This document shows positions 3,776 through 30,183 of a DNA stretch of 32,000 bases, piece after piece. Under the pieces are notes generated by a model that did no database searches, had not been told where the DNA came from, and saw only the letters and a list, made by a program, of their open reading frames with translations. Position 1 is the stretch's first letter; every line of letters starts with the position of its first letter. Source of the DNA: an uncultured Chloroflexia bacterium (lineage in GTDB: Bacteria > Chloroflexota > Anaerolineae > Anaerolineales > Anaerolineaceae). The stretch spans positions 2,040,001 through 2,072,000 of the forward strand of contig OY969938.1 in NCBI GenBank assembly GCA_963704755.1, read 5' to 3'. Made by a program: the position numbers and the translations under genes.

Positions 3776-3850
3776 GGGCCCAACCGGCGCCCGATTCTCC
3801 ACGCTGCGGGTAAAATAACTTCAATTCGGGATAAGCGAAAAACGGATTAT

Positions 3851-3903
3851 TTGAGTGTGTTTTTTTCGTGCCGGCTTCGCCGGCACGAAAAAAACACACT
3901 CAA
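3851..3903. repeat. Long perfect hairpin with GCTTCGC apex (family C, copy 1)
   Basis: 24-bp perfect stem TTGAGTGTGTTTTTTTCGTGCCGG / CCGGCACGAAAAAAACACACTCAA around CTTCG. The T-run is on the 5' arm and the A-run on the 3' arm, so this is not a classical terminator on either strand. Confidence 0.9.
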
Positions 3904-3944
3904 AAACCCTTATCCTATTGAGAAAAGACGGATCAGGATTTATT

Positions 3945-7540: not shown

Positions 7541-7578
7541 ATACTTTGTTTGTAACCGCGCAGCCTAATAGGCGAGAA

Positions 7579-7642
7579 CCCCGAGTTTGAAGTATCTGCC
7601 TGGGCTTCGCCCAGGCAGATACTTCAAACTCGGGGTGTTTTT
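7579..7642 (+). terminator. Family-C hairpin (copy 3) followed by a T-tract. Likely terminator of the chaB/permease operon
   Basis: Perfect 26-bp stem CCCCGAGTTTGAAGTATCTGCCTGGG / CCCAGGCAGATACTTCAAACTCGGGG around CTTCG, followed by TGTTTTT. Confidence 0.65.
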
Positions 7643-11307: not shown

Positions 11308-11568
11308 CTTTTAGGGCAATTTCTGCATTTGCAGTGGCAAAGCCACCGAAACAGGCGTTCTTTGAAAACAGAGAAACAATAGCCGGTGGCTTCGCCATTA
11401 CGCCAATCCATTAAGATCGCAACTTTCAAAAGGGAGAAATAGTGGGAAAATTTGCAATCCTGACAGGTCCAGCATTGGCCCTGTAAATAGGTAAGAAAAG
11501 TTTATCCAAGTGGAGCTGGATGATTTAACATGAGAAGATTTATTCTTCTTTTGTCATAAGAGGTTTTA

Positions 11569-11577
11569 TGCTATAGT
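11569..11577 (+). promoter_or_regulatory. Extended -10 promoter of cassette 1
   Basis: TGCTATAGT. The identical 21-nt block TTATGCTATAGTATTCTTA recurs upstream of the paralogue at 17680. Confidence 0.55.
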
Positions 11578-11622
11578 ATTCTTATTGGTGAAACAATAGA
11601 TCCAGGATTTGGGGGAAAGAAA

Positions 11623-13020
11623 ATGACAATTTTCCAATTAAACTGTCATCCAGAAGAATTGTTTCAATTACAAGAAATCAATCCGGAATTATACACTGCG
11701 CTCATCAGCAAAGATCAACTCATTGAAATCCTATACGGTAAGCCACCCTACAATGTGGTGATCGGTGTTCCTCACCAAGCGGCAATAGGTGTCAAGTCCA
11801 TTGCAGAAAACGGTCGTGAGCGTGCTTCCGATGAAGGGGCTGCGTTTTATGCCCTTGTTGCGTTTTTGAGGCTTAAAGAGCAACAAATTCCATGCAAAAT
11901 CGTTATTTCCGCTCATGATACTCAATTAGACCCTAATAAAGACTCGAATAGTTCTTATTGGAAATCCATTTTTGCTAATGAGATGAAATTATTATTGGAG
12001 TGTCATGGCGCAAAAAAGGACGTGGATAAGATCGATCTTGAAATTTCATCAGGGAAGAACACGTATAGTCATCCTCTTATTTTCGGTCGAGAGCTTGCTA
12101 AAGAAACCGGATATAAATATGGCTTAGTAGCCCAAAAAGACGTTTGTAGCAAAGACGGAATCCAGGTTGCCAAAGATGGCGAGACACCAAAATGTTTACG
12201 AAATGCAGCGATAAGAACCGCTTCATTGGTTGAAGCAAATTGTCAAAAGATTCCAGCTTTACATATTGAGGCAACTCCGAAATTCCGTATCCCGGAAGAT
12301 AACACTAATACGGTTACACACTATGGGCTTGTTCTAGGTGAGGCAATAGGCAGGGTATTAATTGCGCTATTTATATCTGAAAAGCCAAATATAAAAATAT
12401 TAAACCATTACACGAAATTGTTCTATATGCTACAAATGATCATTGAAAAGAAGATTTTCCTAACCAAACCTTGTACGTGGGAGGACAAAAACGACGTTGA
12501 AGCAATGAAACAATATCAATGTGCAGTAGGTAGAGGAAATATATATGCAATTTGCTTTGAGGGACGACGCGAAACTATCCATCACTGGAAAGCATACGCA
12601 GGTGGTGTTACAGGGTGTTGCATTGAATTTAATAAAGAAAATTTGATTAACCACTTAAAAGATCAAGATGATTCAATAAAATATGGCAATGTTAATTATT
12701 TGGAAATCAAAAAGCTAAAAGTGTCAAATTTTCACATTGATTGTCTTCCATTTATTAAACGAATTCCATATCAATTTGAACATGAATATCGGGTAATATG
12801 GGTAAATAATGGGTCAGAAGACTTATTGGTTAAAGAATTTGAACTCGATACAAACACAATTAATAAAATTACTATCAGTTATTTTATGCCATATGATGAT
12901 TATCGCATCATAAAAAATTTCGTTGACAACAAATTGGGAAGAGATGTTGTTAATCAATCAACAATTTATGAAAACGACGAATGGATTACAGAAATTAAAA
13001 GAATCGGAAATGGATACTAA
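11623..13020 (+). CDS. Uncharacterised two-domain protein: N-terminal ~250-aa FGase-like (tentative) domain plus C-terminal DUF2971-like domain
   Basis: Low-GC ORF with GGGGGAAAG RBS. N-domain blocks: VIGVPHQ, SDEGAAFYALV, AHDTQLDPNK, LLLECHG, LEISSG, LHIEATPKFRIPE. C-domain blocks: LNHYT...TWEDKNDVE, IYAICFE...HHWKAYAGGVTGCCIEFNKENL, YGNVNY, FIKRIPYQFEHEYRVIW. Confidence 0.8.
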   Translation: MTIFQLNCHPEELFQLQEINPELYTALISKDQLIEILYGKPPYNVVIGVPHQAAIGVKSIAENGRERASDEGAAFYALVAFLRLKEQQIPCKIVISAHDTQLDPNKDSNSSYWKSIFANEMKLLLECHGAKKDVDKIDLEISSGKNTYSHPLIFGRELAKETGYKYGLVAQKDVCSKDGIQVAKDGETPKCLRNAAIRTASLVEANCQKIPALHIEATPKFRIPEDNTNTVTHYGLVLGEAIGRVLIALFISEKPNIKILNHYTKLFYMLQMIIEKKIFLTKPCTWEDKNDVEAMKQYQCAVGRGNIYAICFEGRRETIHHWKAYAGGVTGCCIEFNKENLINHLKDQDDSIKYGNVNYLEIKKLKVSNFHIDCLPFIKRIPYQFEHEYRVIWVNNGSEDLLVKEFELDTNTINKITISYFMPYDDYRIIKNFVDNKLGRDVVNQSTIYENDEWITEIKRIGNGY

Positions 13021-13053
13021 AAGAATTATCTACATAAATCTTGAAACCAATAA

Positions 13054-13308
13054 CCTCCAGTCCAGCTAAAGATCCCTTCATCTCTTTTTGCATGCGTTGA
13101 AGAGCGGGATTACGCCCTGGCTATTCGCAAGAAATTAGAGGAAATCGCCATTGACCCTTTCGCCACCCATAAGAATTGCAAAAAACTACAAGGGCGACCG
13201 GGCTATCGTTTGCGGGTTGGTGATTGGCGAGTTATATATGAGATTAATCAAAATGAAGTGCTCATTATCGTTTTGAAAGTAGCACCAAGAGGCGAGGTGT
13301 ATCGATGA
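13054..13308 (+). pseudogene. RelE/ParE-family toxin remnant lacking a start codon and part of its N-terminus
   Basis: The frame reads ..IRKKLEEIAIDPFATHKNCKKLQGRPGYRLRVGDWRVIYEINQNEVLIIVLKVAPRGEVYR*. There is no ATG/GTG/TTG between the upstream stop (13051-13053) and the conserved core. Its stop overlaps the antitoxin ATG (ATGA). Confidence 0.65.
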
Positions 13309-13685
13309 ACGTTCAAATTATTAAAAATAGCGGCAAACCAGAATGGGCAGTGCTGCCTTACCAGACTTATCTTAAACTCGTCGAAAAAGCCGAAATGCTG
13401 GAAGATATTCGTGATTACGACCAGGCCAAAGCCGATCTCGAGAATGGGCGAGAGGAACTGATCCCGGCGGAGCTGATTTTCGCTATCCAGGACGGCAAGA
13501 ACCCGATTAAGGCCTGGCGCGAATATCGCAGCTTATCCCAACAAGAATTGGCCGATATGGCCGACATCAGTGTTCCTTATTTGTCTCAACTGGAAACCGG
13601 TCGCAGAAAAGGCTCGCTGGAAGTTTTGACAGAAATTGCCAAAGCGCTTAAAGTCTCGTTGGATAACCTGACACCGGCCGATTGA
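13305..13685 (+). CDS. Antitoxin-like protein with a C-terminal Xre-type HTH
   Basis: The C-terminal SQQELADMADISVPYLSQLETGRRKGSLEVLTEIAKAL is a classic HTH_3 pattern. It is positioned downstream of, and coupled to, the RelE-like frame. Confidence 0.8.
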   Translation: MNVQIIKNSGKPEWAVLPYQTYLKLVEKAEMLEDIRDYDQAKADLENGREELIPAELIFAIQDGKNPIKAWREYRSLSQQELADMADISVPYLSQLETGRRKGSLEVLTEIAKALKVSLDNLTPAD

Positions 13686-13727
13686 TTATTTTTACGGATC
13701 CACTTTTTGCTTCTTCTTCGTAACGCT

Positions 13728-13812
13728 GTAGGGTGGGTGCAGGGCTCATAAACAACGCTCGCGAACAAAGAAGTAGCCGTCCCCACCAGGGAATAGCCCG
13801 TAACCCACTATG
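13728..13812 (+). repeat. Family-A element, copy 3
   Basis: GTAGGGTGGGTGCAGGGCTCAT...GCCCGTAACCCACTAT. Confidence 0.8.
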
Positions 13813-13820
13813 ATGTCGTG

Positions 13821-13903
13821 ATGGTGGGTTACGGGCAAGGATTCGTAGATTTTGCCTGAGCGCCGGACCCCGGCGCTATAAACGAGCCCTGCACCCACCT
13901 TAC
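13821..13903 (-). repeat. Family-A element, copy 4, inverted and head-to-head with copy 3
   Basis: ATGGTGGGTTACGGGC...GAGCCCTGCACCCACCTTAC. Confidence 0.8.
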
Positions 13904-13964
13904 ACCATTTTTTTAAAAAAACTTCTCCGTGCCTCAGTATTTTATTTGTAAAGTAAGTGCCGTA

Positions 13965-14049
13965 ATGGTGCGTTCCGGGCACGCCGGTGTAGGCGAATGA
14001 CCTGATGATCCGCCGGTGCCAGAGAAGTCAGCCCTCAAACGCACCCTAC
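13965..14049 (-). repeat. Family-A variant, copy 5, with co-varying arms
   Basis: ATGGTGCGTTCCGGGC...GCCCTCAAACGCACCCTAC. GGTGCG replaces GGTGGG in both arms. Confidence 0.65.
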
Positions 14050-14070
14050 GACGAGGCGTTTTTAAAATAG

Positions 14071-14121
14071 TCTCTCTTCTTCTCTTTCCTTTCTCCGTGA
14101 ACTCCGTGCCTCCGTGGTTTT
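14071..14121 (+). repeat. Family-B element containing three CTCCGTG direct repeats
   Basis: TTCTCCGTGAACTCCGTGCCTCCGTGGTTTT (14091-14121) is identical to 18708-18738. A degenerate copy lies at 13921-13950. Confidence 0.85.
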
Positions 14122-14159
14122 ATTTGCAAAGTCAGTACCACAATGGTGAGGATTCGCTC

Positions 14160-14187
14160 TTGTAATTCCTTTGCTTTTAGCTAAAAT
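14160..14187 (+). promoter_or_regulatory. Putative promoter of the GntR gene
   Basis: TTGTAA, 16-nt spacer, TAAAAT. The ATG is 19 nt downstream of the -10, with no obvious SD. Confidence 0.45.
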
Positions 14188-14205
14188 AGGTATGACGACT
14201 ATCGT

Positions 14206-14943
14206 ATGAATACATCAACCGTAATTCGAGCCAAACCCGTCGCGCTGCAGGTAGAAGAAATCCTGCGCGAGCGCATCCGCCAGGGCGTATACCCTCCGGA
14301 CCAGCGCATACCGTCTGAAGAACACCTGGCCGCAGAGCTACAGGTCAGCCGCGCCTCGCTGCGCACGGCCCTGGCCAGCCTGGAGGCGAAGGGGTACATC
14401 CTGCGCCGGCATGGCGATGGCACCTACGTTCACTCGCACGCGCTGGAGATCAACCTTAACCCGGTGCGGGCCTGGGACATCGAGCGCCAGATCCGTGAAA
14501 GCGGCCGCACGCCTTCCCTGCGGGTCCTGGAACTGGCCCGGCGGCCGGCCACGCCAGATGAAGCCGCCCGGCTTGGGATGGCCGGCGGGGAAGAAATCCT
14601 GGCCGTGCGGCGCCTGTTCTGCGCAGACAACCAGCCGGTGGTGGTGATCTCCAATTATCTGCGCACCAGTGACCTGGCCGCCCCGGTTACCCCGCAAGCG
14701 GCCAGTCTTACTCCAATCGAGTTCCTGGAGCAATACCTGCTGCCCAAACCACGCGACGGCCAGATCCACTTCACCGCTACCCTGCCCGACCCCCAACTGG
14801 TTGAACTGCTCCAGGTCCAACCCGGCCAACCGCTGCTGAAAATGGACAGCCTCGTGTTCGATGCCGACGGCCGCCCTATCCTCCTCGAAGATGAAATCTA
14901 CCTTGGCCAGGAAGGTTTCCAGATGCATCTCGGCCTCGCCTGA
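14206..14943 (+). CDS. GntR-family transcriptional regulator, HutC subfamily (wHTH plus UTRA-like C-domain)
   Basis: The N-terminus (IPSEEHLAAELQVSRASLRTALASLEAKGYILRRHGDGTYV) is the GntR wHTH signature. The ~160-aa C-terminal domain is typical of UTRA. Confidence 0.9.
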   Translation: MNTSTVIRAKPVALQVEEILRERIRQGVYPPDQRIPSEEHLAAELQVSRASLRTALASLEAKGYILRRHGDGTYVHSHALEINLNPVRAWDIERQIRESGRTPSLRVLELARRPATPDEAARLGMAGGEEILAVRRLFCADNQPVVVISNYLRTSDLAAPVTPQAASLTPIEFLEQYLLPKPRDGQIHFTATLPDPQLVELLQVQPGQPLLKMDSLVFDADGRPILLEDEIYLGQEGFQMHLGLA

Positions 14944-14994
14944 TGCTCTTTTTAATAATTTACAAGCCATGTAATGGCTCAACTTATAAGGAGT

Positions 14995-15043
14995 GAAATT
15001 TTTATTATTTTGCGTGCTTCGCCCGCAAAATAATAAAAATTTC
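14995..15043. repeat. Family-C hairpin, copy 5, with an AT-rich stem
   Basis: GAAATTTTTATTATTTTGCG-TGCTTCGCC-CGCAAAATAATAAAAATTTC. Confidence 0.85.
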
Positions 15044-15072
15044 GTAACTGCTCAGGCAAGTGCGCAAGGCGA

Positions 15073-15127
15073 GGGTGTTTTTATTATTTTTTGTGCGCTT
15101 CGCGCACAAAAAATAATAAAAACACCC
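15073..15127. repeat. Family-C hairpin, copy 6. Its stem is paralogous to copy 5
   Basis: GGGTGTTTTTATTATTTTTTGTGCGC-TTC-GCGCACAAAAAATAATAAAAACACCC, a perfect 26-bp stem. Confidence 0.9.
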
Positions 15128-15279
15128 TAAACCTCTGTAGTAGCTAAGTAGTTACAAAATTTCTACCTCCTGACCCTGCTCGAGCAGCCACCAGGCAATT
15201 TTTCCAATCCGCGTATAGGGAGATCGGAAACCCAACTCTCGCTATGTTCAGCCATTTTCTGATCGGATCGAGGTGAAAA

Positions 15280-17221
15280 ATGAACCTGCTTCAAATGCGA
15301 ATGAACTCTTTTGACGAACTCGTCCTGGCCGCCCGTGGAGAAATCCCGGTCGACTTGCTTATCGAGGGGGGAAAGATACTCAACGTCCAGACCGGGGATA
15401 TCCTGGAGGGCAACATTGCCGTCCACAAGGGCTTTATCGTCTCCCTATTTTTAAAAAATATCCAAGCGCACAAACGCATCGACGCCAGGGGCAAAATTGC
15501 CCTGCCGGCCTTCATCGACCCGCACGTGCACGTCGAAAGCTCGATGGTTCTGCCGCCCGCTTACGCCCAGGTAGTGGCTGCCAACGGTACCGGTACGGTG
15601 CTGGCCGACCCGCACGAAATCGTCAACGTGATGGGGGTGGATGGCTTCTCGCTGATGGAGGAGAACACCGCCGATTTGCCCCTGCGGCTCTTCTTCGATA
15701 TCCCAACCTGTGTGCCCTCCAAACGAGCCGCCGAGTCGTCCGGGGCCGATATCCAGGCCGGGGAAGTGCGCGAGATGGCCCGGCGTGGCGGCCGCAAACT
15801 GGGCGAGTTGATGAGCTACGAGGAAATCATCGGCGGCGAACCGGTTATGACCGGCATCGTCAAAACCGGCTGGGAGTTGGGCCTGCCGCGTGACGCCCAT
15901 TTCCCCATGTTCTCTGTGCTGGGCGGCGCGTTCAATGCGCTCAACGTGCCTCAAAAGCTGGGTGTAGGCCTGGGGCTGCTCGGCTCACAACTGCTCAAAT
16001 GGCCGGCCCTAAATGCGCTGCCCTATTCGATCTTCAGCAAACAACTACGCAAACAGGAATACGCCGATTTGAATGCCTACCTGGTAGCCCTGGGCCTGAC
16101 CGCCGATCACGAGACCTACGGGCCGGAAATCCAGATCAAGCTGGATCACGGAATGCACCTGATGATCAGCTCGCACGTCTTCCTGACTTTTCCCCAGATG
16201 ATGCCAATCCTGTTACAAGGGGTACGCCGGCTGAAATACAAAGATGCAATCGGCTTATGCACCGACGATTTGTGGCCGGACGACCTGCTCGCCATGGGGG
16301 GCATCGTAGGCGTGCTGCGCCACCTGGTCAAGAACGGCATCGACCCGGTCGACGCGGTGCGCTTTGCCACGATCAATAACGCCCAGCGCCTGGCCCAGGC
16401 CGGCCTGGCCGAAGGGTCTTTGATTGGCGCACTCGTGCCGGGCATGGCCGCCGATATCGTCCTGGTAGAGGAACCGCTGCGGCAATTCAAGATCGCCACG
16501 GTCATCCACGAGGGCAAGGTAGTGGCCGAAAACGGCAGCCTCACCCAGGCTTTGCCTGCTCCCAAAATCCCCGCGGCCGCGCTGGATTCGGTGCGGCTCA
16601 CACCGGTTAGCGCCGATACCTTCCGCATTCCCGCGCCGGCCGGCGTGCGCAATGGGACGACCCGCGCGCGGGTGCTGGTGCTGCCCAAACCACCCGACCT
16701 GCCCTTCCCCAACCTGTCTGAGGTGGAAGTCCCGGTAGTAGATCGCTACCTCGACCCGGGCAGCTACATTCTCATCGCCGCCTTCAATCGCTACGGCAAA
16801 GCGGGCAAATCGCCCACGATTGGGCTGATCCAGGGCTATACATTAAAAGAAGGCGCAGCCGCCAGCACCCTTTGCCACGATTCTTCACAACCTGATCGTT
16901 TTGGGCACAAACCCGGCCGATATGGCCGTGGCGGCCAACACGGTTATTGCGATGAAGGGCGGCATGGCGGCCGTGCGCAATAACCAGGTGCTGGCCAAAA
17001 TACCCTTCCCGATCGGCGGCCTGATGACCGAAGACACAGTCGAGGCTATGGCCGTCCAGGCGCGCGCGTTCCGCCAGGCCATCGACACGCTGGGGTTAGA
17101 CCCCAAGAGCCCCATCTTGCCCTTTGCGATCTTCTCGCTGCCGGCCGGCCCTGGCGACAAGGTCACCGATCGCGGCATCTGGGATGGGAGTAAACACGAG
17201 CTGGTGGAGCTGCTGGTGTAA
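15280..17221 (+). pseudogene. ade: Adenine deaminase (amidohydrolase superfamily) interrupted by a +1 base near 16885
   Basis: The N-terminus (LPAFIDPHVHVESSMVLPPAYAQVVAANGTGTVLADPHEIVNVMG) fits adenine deaminase. ORF 16901-17221 continues the family C-terminus. Reading GAT TCT [T] CAC AAC CTG restores ..CHDSHNLIVLGTNPADMAVAAN... RBS GAGGTG upstream of 15280. Confidence 0.8.
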
Positions 17222-17227
17222 CCGAAC

Positions 17228-17275
17228 GGCTGTGGGGCTTGCAGTCCCATGTCCACAGGTTCGAATTTTGGCCCA
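17228..17275 (+). other. tRNA-like 3' fragment (anticodon-arm-like and T-loop-like segments), degenerate
   Basis: TGGGG-CTTGCAG-TCCCA forms a 5-bp stem with a 7-nt loop and TGC at the anticodon position. It is followed by GTCCACAGGTTCGAAT, but the 3' T-stem and acceptor are not complementary. Confidence 0.3.
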
Positions 17276-17311
17276 ACTTATCTGCCTTTTTAATCGCACC
17301 TGTGTGGCTAT

Positions 17312-17392
17312 GTAGGTTGGGTTCGGGCTCATCAACTAAATTAGCCAGGAACTGGCATTGGCCCACTTTGCCCTTGCCCGAACCCAACAATA
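17312..17392 (+). repeat. Family-A variant, copy 6
   Basis: GTAGGTTGGGTTCGGGCTCAT...GCCCGAACCCAACAAT. The arms form a perfect 13-bp inverted repeat GTTGGGTTCGGGC. Confidence 0.7.
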
Positions 17393-17679
17393 TTGCCTCA
17401 CCTTAAAAAGTCGTGGGGAACGCTTTGTCCCAGGCGATTTAAAAAGTTGATCAATCCGCTCTACCCAACCTCTACAGCTACCGTTTCTCCTGAACGGTCG
17501 CGTCACACAGCGTCGAAACAATAACTCTTTTTATCATTGCCCTGGCCGCTTTTGCCAGGGTGCGGCAATCTCAACAAGGACTCGTTAGAGACTCTCGCAA
17601 GAATCGCGAAGACTCTCATGCTCATATTCGATGATTTGATACCGATAGACTGGTTCTTCACACCACCACCGGGTGTTTA

Positions 17680-17688
17680 TGCTATAGT
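17680..17688 (+). promoter_or_regulatory. Extended -10 promoter of cassette 2
   Basis: TGCTATAGT within the same conserved block as 11569-11577. Confidence 0.55.
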
Positions 17689-17733
17689 ATTCTTACCAAA
17701 GAATGTTTATTTTCGCATTCAAGGAAAAATGGA

Positions 17734-18498
17734 ATGACATTATTCCGACTTAACCGTCATCCAGAAGAATTATTACATTTGCATGAAAATGAGCCGGAAC
17801 TTTATAAAGCGCTTCTCAGTAAAGATTGCCTCATTGAAATTTCAAGCAGCATACAACCCTATGATGTGGTTATCGGTGTTCCCCACCAGACTGCCATAGG
17901 TATTGGGTATATTGCAGAAAATAACCACAAACGTGTGTCCGATGAGGGAGCTGCTTTTTATGCATTAGTCATTTTTACGACATTAGCCAATCTCGGAATT
18001 CCCAATAAGATTGTTATCGCAGCCCACGATACACAATATGACCCTAACAAGGAACCTAATAGCTCCTATTGGAAAGCAATTTTTTTCGACAAGATGCGAT
18101 TATTGTTGGAATGTCATGGCTCCAAAGATAGAGAAATAGACCTTGAGGTTTCTTCTGGAACGAATTCATTAGGAAAACCCTCAGTTTTTGGGCATATCTT
18201 AGCCAAAGAACTAAATTATCAATACTCCTTGATTGCACAAGAAAATGCAAAATCTAATGAAGGGATGCAAATAGAAATAAGCGAAGACAAACCCACTAAA
18301 TTAAAGTATGCGGCACTTAGCACAAAATCGCTGACCGAAGCAGGAGACCGTTGTATACCAGCATTTCACATCGAGGCTACCCCAAAATTCCGTATTCCTG
18401 AGAATAAGAGTAACAACCTTACAACTGATGGGCTCATTCTTGGCCAGGCAATAGGTAATGCCCTGTCTAAGTATTTTACCGAAACAGACAAAGGATAA
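17734..18498 (+). CDS. Stand-alone paralogue of the N-terminal (FGase-like, tentative) domain of the 11623-13020 protein
   Basis: 254 aa, colinear with residues 1-250 of the 465-aa protein. Conserved blocks: HPEEL, VVIGVPHQ, SDEGAAFYALV, AHDTQ.DPNK, SSYWK, LLLECHG, HIEATPKFRIPE. Low GC. Confidence 0.8.
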   Translation: MTLFRLNRHPEELLHLHENEPELYKALLSKDCLIEISSSIQPYDVVIGVPHQTAIGIGYIAENNHKRVSDEGAAFYALVIFTTLANLGIPNKIVIAAHDTQYDPNKEPNSSYWKAIFFDKMRLLLECHGSKDREIDLEVSSGTNSLGKPSVFGHILAKELNYQYSLIAQENAKSNEGMQIEISEDKPTKLKYAALSTKSLTEAGDRCIPAFHIEATPKFRIPENKSNNLTTDGLILGQAIGNALSKYFTETDKG

Positions 18499-18690
18499 CT
18501 CACATACAAATGTCAGCTTCTAAGAACTACGATTGGATAAACATAGCAAACAGCAAAAATATAGCCTAATTTAATTAGGCAAAGAAATATCCCGAAAAAC
18601 AATAAATTGGCGTAGAAGAGCGGCCCCGGCCGAGGGTTGCGAGGGACCGGGCCGATCCGCCTTCGGCTATGGCCTTTTTTTACAGCAAAT

Positions 18691-18738
18691 TCTCTTCTCT
18701 CTTTCTTTTCTCCGTGAACTCCGTGCCTCCGTGGTTTT
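18691..18738 (+). repeat. Family-B element, second full copy
   Basis: TCTCTTCTCTCTTTCTTTTCTCCGTGAACTCCGTGCCTCCGTGGTTTT. The 31-nt core is identical to 14091-14121. Confidence 0.85.
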
Positions 18739-18843
18739 CTTACCTTCTGTGGTTTACTTACTTTCCTGTCCAAGCGTATAATGGTCTCAGAGGGTTTGGA
18801 TGGTTGGGTCTCTTTTTGCACAAAACCAATAAGAGGACAAATC

Positions 18844-20292: not shown

Positions 20293-20375
20293 ATGGTGGG
20301 TTACGGGCAAGGTTTTGTAGGTCTTGCCGTTTTGTTGTTCGCCAGCGTTGCTTATAAGCCCTGCGCCCACACTAC
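20293..20375 (-). repeat. Family-A element, copy 7, inverted
   Basis: ATGGTGGGTTACGGGCA...GCCCTGCGCCCACACTAC. The interior resembles copy 3 (CAACGCT.GCGAACAA). Confidence 0.75.
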
Positions 20376-20433
20376 ATTTCTCAACGACCGCTGTGCCTCA
20401 GCGGTTTAATCTATGGCCAACAAGGAATCAAAA

Positions 20434-20487
20434 AGAAGGTTATGGCAATCCGGCGCGTACGCGCCGGATTGCCATAACCTTCTTTCT
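20434..20487 (+). terminator. Perfect 24-bp palindromic hairpin (apex GTAC), possible terminator
   Basis: AGAAGGTTATGGCAATCCGGCGCG-TA-CGCGCCGGATTGCCATAACCTTCT followed by TTCT. The U-tract is weak. Confidence 0.4.
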
Positions 20488-22072: not shown

Positions 22073-22192
22073 CTCTTGGCAATGACCTACTCTCCCAGGG
22101 GGTCGCCCCCCAAGTACCATCGGCGCTGACGGCCTTAACTTCCGGGTTCGAGATGTAACCGGGTGTACCACCGTCGCTCAGATCACCAAGAG
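22073..22192 (-). rRNA. rrf: 5S ribosomal RNA
   Basis: The minus strand reads ..CTTGGTGATCTGAGCGACGGTGGTACACCCGGTTACATCTCGAACCCGGAAGTTAAGGCCGTCAGCGCCGATGGTACTTGGGGGGCGACCCCCTGGGAGAGTAGGTCATTGCCAAGAGG. Helix I termini are complementary. Confidence 0.9.
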
Positions 22193-22273
22193 ACTTTATT
22201 CACAAAGTCTAAGTTGAATATTGTATGTAGGTTATTAGTCGAAACAAAGAGTGCTGAGTTCTCCGCATCACGT

Positions 22274-25236
<2,963 letters not shown>

Positions 25237-25547
25237 GCACGTGATGCGGAGAATTCAGAACTCTTTAGTTCCGAAAAATGATTTGACTACTCTAAATTTA
25301 GCCTACATACAATATTCGATTATTAATGTGCAACTTTCTTCTTACGCTGGTTGACCAGCGCGGAGCGACCCTCACTAACGTCAGGGGCACTCAGCGCCCT
25401 TCAACTTTCTGCACTCATTTGTTAATAAACACGGCAACCCGGCTCACCGCCGGGCAATTTATTCCCTCGCGGATCTGCTTATTCTTTCTTATTTGATCTG
25501 CCGTTTGTTTCTTTCCACACACACTCCGTTATTATTTTCATAGCTAG

Positions 25548-25620
25548 TGGAGATGAGGGGATTCGAACCCCTGACCTCCGCCGTGCAAAGGCGGCGCTCT
25601 CCCAACTAAGCTACATCCCC
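25548..25620 (-). tRNA. tRNA-Ala (anticodon UGC). CCA is not encoded
   Basis: GGGGATGTAGCTTAGTTGGGAGAGCGCCGCCTTTGCACGGCGGAGGTCAGGGGTTCGAATCCCCTCATCTCCA, with a G3:U70-type acceptor and a cloverleaf visible by eye. Confidence 0.95.
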
Positions 25621-25670
25621 ATCGTACAGGGCAGCACCCATTCGGGCACGATGTACCCCTTGGGTACAGG

Positions 25671-25744
25671 TGGGCCTTTCAGGGCTCGAACCTGAGACCT
25701 CGCCCTTATCAGAGGCGCGCTCTAACCAACTGAGCTAAAGGCCC
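25671..25744 (-). tRNA. tRNA-Ile (anticodon GAU)
   Basis: GGGCCTTTAGCTCAGTTGGTTAGAGCGCGCCTCTGATAAGGGCGAGGTCTCAGGTTCGAGCCCTGAAAGGCCCA. Confidence 0.95.
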
Positions 25745-25885
25745 TTTCATTTGTTAATGAAGCGCCTTAGCAACTGAAGAGTGACAGGAAGATTGATTTT
25801 CGTGCTCCGCCCTCGTCACCGCGACGAGGCATTACGTATCAAGGAGTGGAGTTCGCGCCCTCAGGCGGTCACTCGAGGCTCCATA

Positions 25886-27384
<1,499 letters not shown>

Positions 27385-27497
27385 GCAAAAAATTTCACCT
27401 TTTCAGGTGTTTATTACGGGTTTATTTGACGGAGCTTACTCGTCTTTCTTCCTATCACTCTTCAGTTGTTAAGGTACCGCTTACTTCCGAGGGCCAG

Positions 27498-30114: not shown

Positions 30115-30183
30115 GAGAATAGAGAAAAGAAAACAGAGATTGGTAAAGTATTTACCAATCTCTGTTTTCTTTTCTCTATTCTC
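30115..30183. repeat. 33-bp perfect hairpin downstream of the VanW gene
   Basis: GAGAATAGAGAAAAGAAAACAGAGATTGGTAAA-GTA-TTTACCAATCTCTGTTTTCTTTTCTCTATTCTC. Confidence 0.9.

Follow-up and report, generated by a model that had tools for sequence, protein, structure and literature searches.

Two related gene cassettes of unusual base composition in the genome of an uncultured Chloroflexia bacterium (Anaerolineaceae) raise the question of what the ~250-residue protein domain that they share does for the cell. The cassettes lie in a stretch of 32,000 nucleotides (contig OY969938.1 of assembly GCA_963704755.1, positions 2,040,001 to 2,072,000 of the forward strand), which we refer to as the window. 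Each carries one open reading frame (ORF): ORF A, in which the shared domain (the N-domain) is followed by a second module, and ORF B, which consists of the domain by itself. An initial annotation of the stretch had taken them for duplicated, diverging accessory genes of conflict or defence, and this view is supported by their G+C content at third codon positions (GC3), the rarity of the family, the lack of conserved synteny, and recurrent fusions and operons with defence genes in other genomes. On balance, we lean towards the view that ORF A and ORF B go back to a single horizontally acquired cassette and diverged as paralogues long ago, and that the N-domain is a portable enzymatic module of anti-phage or conflict systems. 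As judged from these features, ORF A and ORF B are themselves probably defence genes.

Two diverged cassettes and their shared upstream block

The DNA of the two cassettes aligns in a single register, with an offset of 6111, from the octamer GATGATTT ~104 nt 5' of the ATG to approximately codon 250 (Table 1). Coding identity is 68% at the nucleotide level and 49% at third codon positions, and 146 of the first 250 residues of the proteins are identical (58%; BLASTP, E 6e-100). These values agree with the earlier estimates of homologous segments of ~850 bp, of homology that begins ~100 nt before the ATG and spans ~250 codons, and of proteins that are half to 60% identical. The six conserved blocks that had been picked out by eye (VVIGVPHQ, SDEGAAFYALV, AHDTQ.DPNK, SSYWK, LLLECHG, and HIEATPKFRIPE) are all present and identical in the two proteins. 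By the Nei-Gojobori method, the proportion of synonymous differences (pS) is 0.73 and thus saturated, the nonsynonymous distance (dN) is 0.35, and the ratio of nonsynonymous to synonymous divergence (dN/dS) is ~0.12. Because synonymous sites are saturated and so little identity is left at third positions, the comparison indicates that the pair arose long ago, either by duplication or by two acquisitions of one type of cassette. The two genes are sisters in a neighbour-joining tree of the family, and their substitution pattern indicates that both copies are under purifying selection.

The longest identical run in the whole cassette alignment is the 20-nt block TTTATGCTATAGTATTCTTA, compared with a maximum of 16 nt within the coding sequence. 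It is identical at 20 of 20 positions, lies 38 nt ahead of each ATG, and is in register with the coding sequence, and this perfect identity contrasts with the saturated synonymous sites. Zero chance matches to the block are expected in the window, even with 3 mismatches. The block contains the sequence TG-n-TATAGT (TGcTATAGT, positions 11569-11577), an extended -10 element, from which transcription would be expected to start near 11584-11586 and 17695-17697, and both ORFs have Shine-Dalgarno-like sequences 8-13 nt ahead of the ATG. The shared promoter proposed in the initial annotation is therefore present as an identical block with an extended -10, with its promoter role being read from the sequence. 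Since conservation over 20 nt exceeds what a -10 element requires, it hints at a shared operator or at a constraint on the discriminator and start site. The block was not found upstream of homologues from other genomes. Its seven exact matches in metagenomes all lie without a nearby homologue, and by our estimate their number is about that expected by chance for a collection of this size; a search of viral contigs gave 0 matches. An RNA element in the leader regions was considered and rejected, with no match in Rfam, folding z-scores of +0.6 and -1.7, and structures that differ between the two leaders. Second in length among the identical runs of the cassettes, after the promoter block, is a 16-nt coding run, GTCATCCAGAAGAATT, and the two show a 6-nt complementarity (ATTCTT/AAGAAT; block positions 11579-11584 and run positions 11652-11658, with counterparts in cassette 2). 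This complementarity is probably due to chance, as RNA folding of the leaders reveals no structure that is significant or common to both.

A predicted hydrolase domain and its DUF2971 partner

Searched as single sequences, the two copies of the shared domain have no match in Pfam, NCBIfam, PADLOC, or PHROGs, and neither phmmer nor two profile searches found anything among the sequences of the PDB. When 1.84 billion cluster representatives were scanned exhaustively with HMMER, 71 proteins with the domain were found at E <= 1e-3. Word-indexed searches of 5.8 billion clusters returned 33 homologues and, after the profile search was widened (alignment A5), 53 homologues, all of which are unnamed and have no Pfam domain in the shared region. 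In a scan of 185,579 species, each represented by one genome, only 10 loci were found, eight of them in Anaerolineae or Caldilineaceae and two in metagenome-assembled genomes (MAGs) labelled Proteobacteria and Deltaproteobacteria. The family is very rare and patchy in its distribution, a point that the initial annotation had proposed to check. Most members of the family are solo proteins of ~260 residues.

The fold of the domain was obtained by modelling ORF B with AlphaFold2 on the basis of 32 homologues, which gave a predicted local distance difference test (pLDDT) score of 92.4 and a predicted template modelling (pTM) score of 0.92. Foldseek assigns the model to the class of Zn-dependent exopeptidases with a phosphorylase/peptidase-like fold. 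Matches in the PDB comprise M14-type carboxypeptidases (3k2k, 4b6z, and 4a37), N-formylglutamate amidohydrolase (FGase; 2q7s and 2odf), PH0006 (2gfq), and Amidase_3 (7b3n), with E ~1e-5, a probability of 1.0, and template modelling (TM) scores of 0.37-0.50, or 0.44-0.50 for the M14-type, FGase, and Amidase_3 structures. For the two FGase structures, E is 7e-6 to 2e-4 and TM 0.46-0.50, and the weaker matches include 2gfq and MTA nucleosidases. Among viral models (BFVD), the poly-gamma-glutamate hydrolase PghP of Bacillus phage Bobb aligns with TM scores of 0.53/0.60 and a root-mean-square deviation of 4.3, and a pithovirus FGase matches with E 2.7e-5. A profile-profile test with PghP from phage Bobb was set aside because the two candidate coding sequences are not PghP, one being unrelated and the other an M23 peptidase. 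Neither the N-domain of ORF A, nor ORF B, nor 10 remote relatives has a Pfam match at E <= 1 to PF05013 (FGase) or PF05908 (PghP). The combination of hmmscan, AlphaFold, and Foldseek, which the initial annotation had proposed for this domain, therefore gives no family match and a hydrolase fold in the model. The domain had been called uncharacterised, which holds for the family but not for the fold, known from the FGase, PghP, and M14 Zn-hydrolases.

Conservation within the family points to an active site. In 42 diverse members, including fusion proteins, residues P50, H51, D103, N105, K106, Y112, E126, H128, G142, E214, and R220 (ORF B numbering) are invariant, and D70, E138, and H212 are nearly so. 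In the ORF B model, all of these residues lie where a beta-strand ends on its C-terminal side or in the loop after it, which is the location of active sites in this fold. The predicted active-site residues of ORF A (H51, D70, E71, H98, D103, N105, K106, Y112, E126, H128, E140, H214, E216, and R222) all have counterparts in ORF B (H51, D70, E71, H98, D103, N105, K106, Y112, E126, H128, E138, H212, E214, and R220). The candidates for metal binding or catalysis, H51, D70/E71, H128, and E214, are invariant or nearly invariant and sit at strand ends of the model. The HxxE...H zinc motif of M14 enzymes is absent: the sequence G-V-P-H-Q/H-A lacks a Glu at position +3, and an acidic pair follows ~19 residues downstream. 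The motif order PH...D-E/N...D-P-N-K...E-x-H-G...H-x-E...R recalls that of FGase, and this likeness serves as a pointer rather than as proof. The sequence of the domain has no signal peptide or membrane segment. The model and these residues make it very probable that the shared domain works in the cytoplasm as an active metal-dependent enzyme, either an amidohydrolase or one of peptidase-like type.

The domain thus appears as a new family within a known fold, with no model in Pfam, NCBIfam, or PADLOC. Like FGase (PF05013), PghP (PF05908), and M14 carboxypeptidases such as MpaA, it is a single alpha/beta domain of ~210-270 residues that reaches a Foldseek probability of 1.0 with several members of these groups, and its invariant His, Asp, and Glu residues lie at strand ends and seem to follow the order of the metal-binding and catalytic residues there. 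Unlike these enzymes, it has a motif set of its own (PHQ/H...D-E/N...D-P-N-K...E-x-H-G...H-x-E...R), and its genomic context is defence rather than catabolism or cell-wall turnover. In the literature, we found no paper that links this fold to defence.

The additional C-terminal module of ORF A, which the initial annotation had noticed, is present, but it is recognisable as a DUF2971/PDC-S31 protein. It matches Pfam PF11185 with E 1.4e-6 to 9e-6 (27.3-30 bits, with a cut-off of 22), and residues ~263-453 match four PADLOC PDC-S31 models almost end to end (best E 1.9e-15), the alignments covering positions 20-238 of 245 and 125-263 of 273. The closest relatives of the module are the stand-alone proteins P0101-P0107, of 207-248 residues. 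Because of these whole-model matches and stand-alone relatives, the sequence indicates that ORF A is a hydrolase domain fused to a complete PDC-S31-type protein, through a linker of ~5 residues. In an AlphaFold2 model of the C-domain (pLDDT 85), the first six Foldseek matches in the PDB are all DarT (7yk3 and 7omv-7omy; probability 0.91-0.99, TM 0.43-0.48), followed by Tpt1/KptA. Residues H320/H321, Y359, and E386-x-E388 are invariant in an alignment of 10 sequences and were assigned to motifs I-III by pattern, not by structural superposition.

A survey of ADP-ribosyltransferases assigns DUF2971 proteins to the H-Y-E clade, as neighbours of DarT and AbiGi; their Tyr and ExE are strictly conserved, and the His of motif I is variable (PMC12522546). 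The family includes Aristaios, a 316-residue protein encoded by a lactococcal plasmid gene, which has a predicted ADP-ribosyltransferase fold and is a validated single-gene system of the abortive-infection type (PMC11381338). Aristaios interferes with phage transcription (PMC11381338, PMC13064643). The modest DarT-like match of the ORF A C-domain is in line with both the survey and the fold predicted for Aristaios. The earlier statement that no characterised system is recognisable at this locus thus does not hold for the C-terminal module, the family of which has a validated anti-phage member, and the profile matches indicate that the ORF A C-domain adds a member to a family that is already known and in part validated. 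Its likeness to Aristaios and PDC-S31, by way of the family, consists of the DUF2971 assignment, the DarT-like fold, and the retained Tyr and ExE. In contrast to Aristaios and P0101-P0107, which stand alone, ORF A adds a 254-residue N-terminal hydrolase-fold domain, an architecture (N-domain followed by DUF2971) seen in no other retrieved sequence.

Genomic partners of the domain and its possible role

In other genomes, the N-domain is recurrently fused or adjacent to defence genes, with ~5 independent architectures by a qualitative count and 3-5 loci that have no defence neighbour; clades defined by context agree with the neighbour-joining tree. An integrase-borne element that carries the N-domain gene occurs at 7 distinct loci, once duplicate records of the same contigs are merged, from Leptolinea tardivitalis (L011/L012) and from Anaerolineaceae MAGs and unassigned metagenome contigs (L001-L004, L016, and L019). 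Two integrases are followed in order by GerE and then by HTH_17, the N-domain, an SspB-like protein (DUF4007), a 159-residue protein, a 1371-residue SspC/BrxC-like ATPase, and an MmeI/Eco57I-type methyltransferase, and the N-domain gene shares a few bases with the genes on either side. The retrieved part of this element contained neither SspA nor SspD, and the operon may be an undescribed Ssp/BREX-like hybrid system. In the clade closest to the window genes, with 51-57% identity, the N-domain is encoded last in a three-gene operon, after proteins of ~267 and ~406 residues (Table 1). The ~406-residue protein ends in an RHAILHG (Rx4H, HEPN-like) motif, and at locus L021 the operon lies directly upstream of a BREX cluster (HTH_17-BrxE-BrxA-BrxB-BrxC). 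Neither partner gene of this clade is found in the window.

Several of the partners are physically joined to the N-domain. At locus L008 it is fused to the N terminus of a complete TmtA, the Tiamat protein (1871 residues; model positions 6-1535 of 1538, E = 0), and in protein P0037 it is fused to DUF4268, the C-terminal half of PDC-S11. ORF A and ORF B are like these proteins in having the same N-domain and unlike them in lacking any TmtA or DUF4268 sequence, so the fusions show only which partners the domain takes. Further fusions join the N-domain to GNAT or place it after DUF4145, and two architectures have N-terminal regions with Rx4-6H motifs that we read as HEPN-like at the motif level only. 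For P0039, P0044, and the 406-residue partner, HEPN identity was not confirmed, as these have Rx4-6H-type motifs only and sequence searches of the PDB were not significant; the DUF4145 of P0084 is the only one of these regions above its Pfam threshold. N-domain genes are also found beside a type III-like methylase/helicase restriction-modification locus with PLD and a 1267-residue protein, and beside an LmuB-like SMC (Lamassu-like) with PLD and NmeDI/EVE. At locus L007 (6530-8693), a solo N-domain gene begins 113 nt after a type II DNA methyltransferase gene, with a patatin-like phospholipase nearby. The position behind a type II methylase is usually held by the cognate restriction enzyme.

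For the role of the hydrolase, we favour that of an effector or co-effector, because the N-domain heads the full TmtA, holds the position of the restriction enzyme behind a methylase, and always keeps its catalytic residues. In the reading that we favour, the cassette would pair an extended -10 promoter with the coding sequence of an amidohydrolase-like domain that is cytoplasmic and depends on a metal. ORF A would be an Aristaios-like defence protein of the abortive-infection type, contained in a single polypeptide. Upon infection, its ADP-ribosyltransferase domain would act as the toxic effector, using NAD+ to modify either nucleic acid or the machinery of transcription, and its hydrolase domain would contribute another catalytic function. 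ORF B, driven by the same type of promoter, would provide the hydrolase by itself. The N-domain genes fit the pattern of modular anti-phage proteins encoded by single genes or operons, with a moderate chance that they represent a new defence chemistry.

A role of the hydrolase as antidote or regulator is nearly as plausible, because the solo copies seem harmless and several of the partners are toxin-type domains. As an account of the cassettes as a whole it is possible but doubtful. The hydrolase would neutralise or gate toxic modules, in a role that corresponds functionally to that of DarG towards DarT or of the antitoxin domain that acts in cis within CapRel. Within ORF A it would silence the transferase, or reverse its modification, until infection, and ORF B would be an orphan antidote with the same promoter. 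The fusion partners in question are the DarT-like ADP-ribosyltransferase, GNAT, DUF4145, and the motif-level HEPN-like regions. The prevalence of solo proteins in the family, some of them harmless amid metabolic genes, recalls orphan antitoxins or immunity genes, the short linker makes ORF A a tight fusion, and the identical promoter block would co-regulate ORF A and ORF B. The fold also houses hydrolases of N-glycosidic bonds and of aminoacyl- and peptidyl-tRNA, with 2gfq and MTA nucleosidases being among the weaker structural matches noted above. However, a single hydrolase is unlikely to reverse the products of RNases, acetyltransferases, and ADP-ribosyltransferases alike, and the TmtA fusion and the operon with SspB/C-like proteins and a methylase have no evident toxin partner. 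Stand-alone DUF2971 proteins (P0101-P0107 and Aristaios) exist or function without a hydrolase, and no macrodomain-, ARH-, or NADAR-like fold is found among the Foldseek matches.

Comparison with systems that join a toxin to its antidote bears on the same question. ORF A resembles DarT-DarG in pairing, in one polypeptide, an ADP-ribosyltransferase-fold domain with a hydrolase-fold domain, and the best structural matches of its C-domain are DarT. In contrast, neither ORF A nor ORF B has a match to DarT (DUF4433) or to a macrodomain in Pfam or PADLOC, and the partner domain is FGase/M14-like. Reversal of ADP-ribosylation by the hydrolase domain of ORF A would be pure speculation. By analogy, the fused toxin-antitoxins of the CapRel type, which are self-promoted and horizontally mobile, also combine a toxin-type enzymatic domain with what may be a sensing or gating domain in one polypeptide; by its sequence, however, the second domain of ORF A resembles an active enzyme and not a pseudo-enzymatic sensor. 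It is unlikely, though it would be the more far-reaching outcome, that the domain founds a so far overlooked family of metal-dependent hydrolases with a dedicated role in prokaryotic immunity, which would either execute defence on a new substrate or act as an enzymatic antidote. In the antidote case, ORF A would be a cis-fused pair of a DarT-like transferase and a reversing hydrolase that is not a macrodomain, which would be a new solution to the logic of DarTG, and ORF B would be a trans-acting orphan copy under identical promoter control.

Several points weigh against the N-domain as a module of anti-phage or conflict systems. Defence, toxicity, metal binding, and hydrolysis are predictions made from sequence and fold. 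The link to FGase, PghP, and M14 is at the level of the fold, with TM scores of ~0.45-0.6 and 9-15% identity, and no profile match to any known family. The match of the ORF A C-domain to the DarT fold is modest (E 1.7e-3, TM 0.44-0.48), PDC-S31 is a candidate system only, and ORF A is tied to Aristaios at the level of the DUF2971 family. A solo, self-promoted effector such as ORF B would need a way to avoid damage to its own cell, and none is visible. Neither cassette lies in a defence island, with crtI-like, gntR, adenine deaminase, and RidA-like genes and an rRNA operon as neighbours. Searches of 50,697 phage records, 72,556 plasmids, and IMG/VR (the last with one peptide pattern) gave no homologues, and so the mobility of the family rests on integrase contexts and composition. 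A distant subfamily of ~210 residues has no clear defence context, and solo homologues are found amid metabolic genes at loci L005 (acyl-CoA dehydrogenase and methylmalonyl-CoA mutase), L009 (an oxidoreductase and a sugar isomerase-like gene), and L013 (ilvBN and an amidohydrolase).

The last of these points would fit a metabolic enzyme, for example an amidohydrolase for a small molecule such as an N-acyl-amino acid, a gamma-glutamyl compound, or similar, encoded by a horizontally gained niche catabolic gene whose defence neighbours result from hitch-hiking. The closest folds (FGase, PghP, M14, and aspartoacylase-like) are catabolic or peptide-trimming, and ORF B itself lies between adenine-deaminase-like and RidA-like genes. 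However, no neighbour is common to any two of the solo loci or to a solo locus and the window, no transporter or regulator gene is consistently close, and the extreme rarity of the family is atypical of a catabolic enzyme. The physical fusions to TmtA, DUF2971, DUF4268, DUF4145, and GNAT, and translational coupling through overlapping stop and start codons within defence-type operons, also speak against such a function, which we regard as quite unlikely.

Table 1. Positions of the cassette features in the window, of the toxin-antitoxin genes next to cassette 1, and of the three-gene operons at other loci.
Feature	Position	Strand	Description or basis
ORF A	11623..13020	+	465 aa, intact
ORF A N-terminal domain (aa 1-254)	11623..12384	+	New family, predicted metal-hydrolase fold (FGase/PghP/M14-like); fold from ORF B model
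ORF A C-terminal domain (aa 255-465)	12385..13020	+	DUF2971/PDC-S31, DarT-like ADP-ribosyltransferase fold; hidden Markov models and AlphaFold2 model
ORF B	17734..18498	+	254 aa, intact; solo copy of the hydrolase-fold domain
GATGATTT, cassette 1	11519..11526	+	First in-register conserved upstream octamer; alignment
GATGATTT, cassette 2	17630..17637	+	Upstream octamer, in register with 11519-11526
TTTATGCTATAGTATTCTTA, cassette 1	11565..11584	+	Conserved 20-nt block; putative extended -10 promoter and discriminator/start-site region of ORF A, by consensus
TTTATGCTATAGTATTCTTA, cassette 2	17676..17695	+	Conserved 20-nt block; putative extended -10 promoter of ORF B, by consensus
relE/parE-type toxin pseudogene	13069..13308	+	5'-truncated, no start codon, abuts 3' end of cassette 1; translation ends ...LRVGDWRVIYEINQNEVLIIVLKVAPRGEVYR
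Xre-type helix-turn-helix antitoxin gene	13305..13685	+	Intact, neighbour outside the paralogous cassette; Pfam HTH_3 E 4e-14, phrog_7241 E 9e-34
Three-gene operon, locus L015	2985-5800		No Pfam or PADLOC match for any protein
Three-gene operon, locus L020	3-2781		No Pfam or PADLOC match for any protein
Three-gene operon, locus L021	2-1172		No Pfam or PADLOC match for any protein

Origin and surroundings of the cassettes

The composition of the cassettes sets them apart from the genes around them. The G+C content is 0.40 for the N-terminal part of ORF A, 0.305 for its C-terminal part, and 0.40 for ORF B, compared with 0.58, 0.64, and 0.61 for the neighbouring crtI-like, gntR, and adenine deaminase genes, and GC3 is 0.27-0.35 in the cassette genes versus 0.74-0.79 in neighbouring genes. 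None of the neighbours of the window cassettes recurs at the loci of homologues, so there is no conserved synteny. Horizontal acquisition of the cassettes, suggested earlier from their low G+C content, is supported by the deviant GC3, the lack of synteny with homologue loci, and the truncated relE that cassette 1 abuts; the figure of ~68% given at that time for the crtI-like gene was too high, the measured value being 58%. With no shared neighbours, the homologues also differ from the housekeeping enzyme with conserved core synteny that the initial annotation had named as the outcome that would speak against it. The G+C content of the C-terminal part of ORF A, below that of its N-terminal part, suggests that this part has another origin and joined an N-domain cassette that was already in existence. 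Eight window proteins were looked up in a collection of 15 billion proteins, and none of them clusters with another protein at 90% identity, so this collection holds no close relative of the genome. The homologues are distributed in a way that suggests a host in the Chloroflexota (Anaerolineae).

Cassette 1 is flanked by the gene for a crtI-like FAD oxidoreductase on one side and by a toxin-antitoxin locus on the other. The toxin remnant (13069-13308) lacks the first ~20 residues and matches the PHROG RelE profile over positions 21-88 of 88 (E 1.4e-14). In this RelE/ParE-Xre pair, the antitoxin gene is intact, the toxin is a remnant, and the two overlap, so the locus is not an intact toxin-antitoxin system. 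The toxin-antitoxin remnant reported behind cassette 1 is thus real as a truncated relE, but it gives no functional toxin-antitoxin association, and the truncation fits an insertion or a deletion at the 3' edge of the cassette. Cassette 2 has an adenine-deaminase-like gene with a frameshift on one side and a RidA-like gene on the other. The adenine-deaminase-like gene (15280-17221) is split by a frameshift near 16888-16905, with Pfam Adenine_deam_C profile positions 8-65 in the ORF at 15280..16983 and positions 70-168 in the overlapping ORF at 16901..17221. The frameshift marks either a pseudogene or a sequencing error. No integrase, target-site duplications, or terminal inverted repeats are found around either cassette.

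Some of these features would be expected if a mobile element or addiction module had degraded here and left the cassettes behind without function: the truncated toxin gene, the frameshift next to cassette 2, the absence from the window of the 267- and 406-residue partners found in the closest clade, and the lack of a nearby integrase. This explanation is very improbable, being contradicted by signals of selection. Both ORFs are intact, with a low dN/dS in spite of saturated dS, all invariant catalytic residues of both domains are retained, the non-coding promoter block is perfectly conserved, and a Shine-Dalgarno-like sequence precedes each start codon.

Other features of the window touch the cassettes by position. 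The tRNA-like fragment described ahead of cassette 2 was not confirmed, with ARAGORN and Rfam negative at 17150-17750. A T-arm-like sequence, CCACAGGTTCGAATTTTGG, is found at 17253-17271, directly past the stop codon of the adenine-deaminase gene, and by its sequence could be the remnant of an old att site or due to chance. Short dispersed intergenic repeat families that resemble repetitive extragenic palindromic sequences or miniature inverted-repeat transposable elements occur at 397-480, 521-605, 13722-13909, 14081-14124, 18698-18741, and 20293-20411, and one family has a terminator-like CCGTGCCTCCGTGG-TTTT hairpin. The repeats of families A and B, described earlier as lying next to each cassette, are these dispersed repeats (e.g. 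14081-14124 and 18698-18741), which are genome-wide elements that are not specific to the cassettes and do not flank them symmetrically. A complete rRNA operon (16S, tRNA-Ile, tRNA-Ala, 23S, and 5S) is located at 22074-27389 on the minus strand, 3.6 kb downstream of cassette 2, and has inverted repeats like processing stems at 22241-22273/25239-25271 and 25765-25792/27447-27474. Tandem arrays are found at 360-607, with a 124-nt unit repeated twice, and within 1435-2481, with a ~350-nt unit repeated three times (1449-2481) that contains internal palindromes (GAGGGAGAATAAC...GGTCCCTCTCCTCTGA) and 14-nt sub-repeats of TTTGTAGCCCGGCT. Perfect intergenic palindromes at 3850-3904, 7578-7636, 15072-15128, 20432-20485, and 30115-30183 have arms of 26-33 nt, unusually long for terminators, and loops of 0-3 nt.

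If the N-domain is indeed a defence module, it would bring a new enzymatic chemistry to anti-phage systems, in which metal-dependent hydrolysis of amides or peptides of the FGase or PghP kind is little represented compared with the dominant nucleases, NADases, proteases, and transferases. The family is missed by current annotation pipelines because it has no model in Pfam, NCBIfam, or PADLOC. To our knowledge, the mechanisms of Tiamat and Aristaios have yet to be described. Because the partners of the domain vary, from Tiamat and the Ssp/BREX-like operons to DarT-like transferases, DUF4145 and HEPN-like regions, and GNAT, its substrate could illuminate several poorly understood systems together. 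The TTTATGCTATAGTATTCTTA block is a ready target for studies of promoters and regulators in the Chloroflexota, for which promoter data are scarce. As a compact natural fusion, ORF A would allow a direct look at the interplay of a transferase and a hydrolase.

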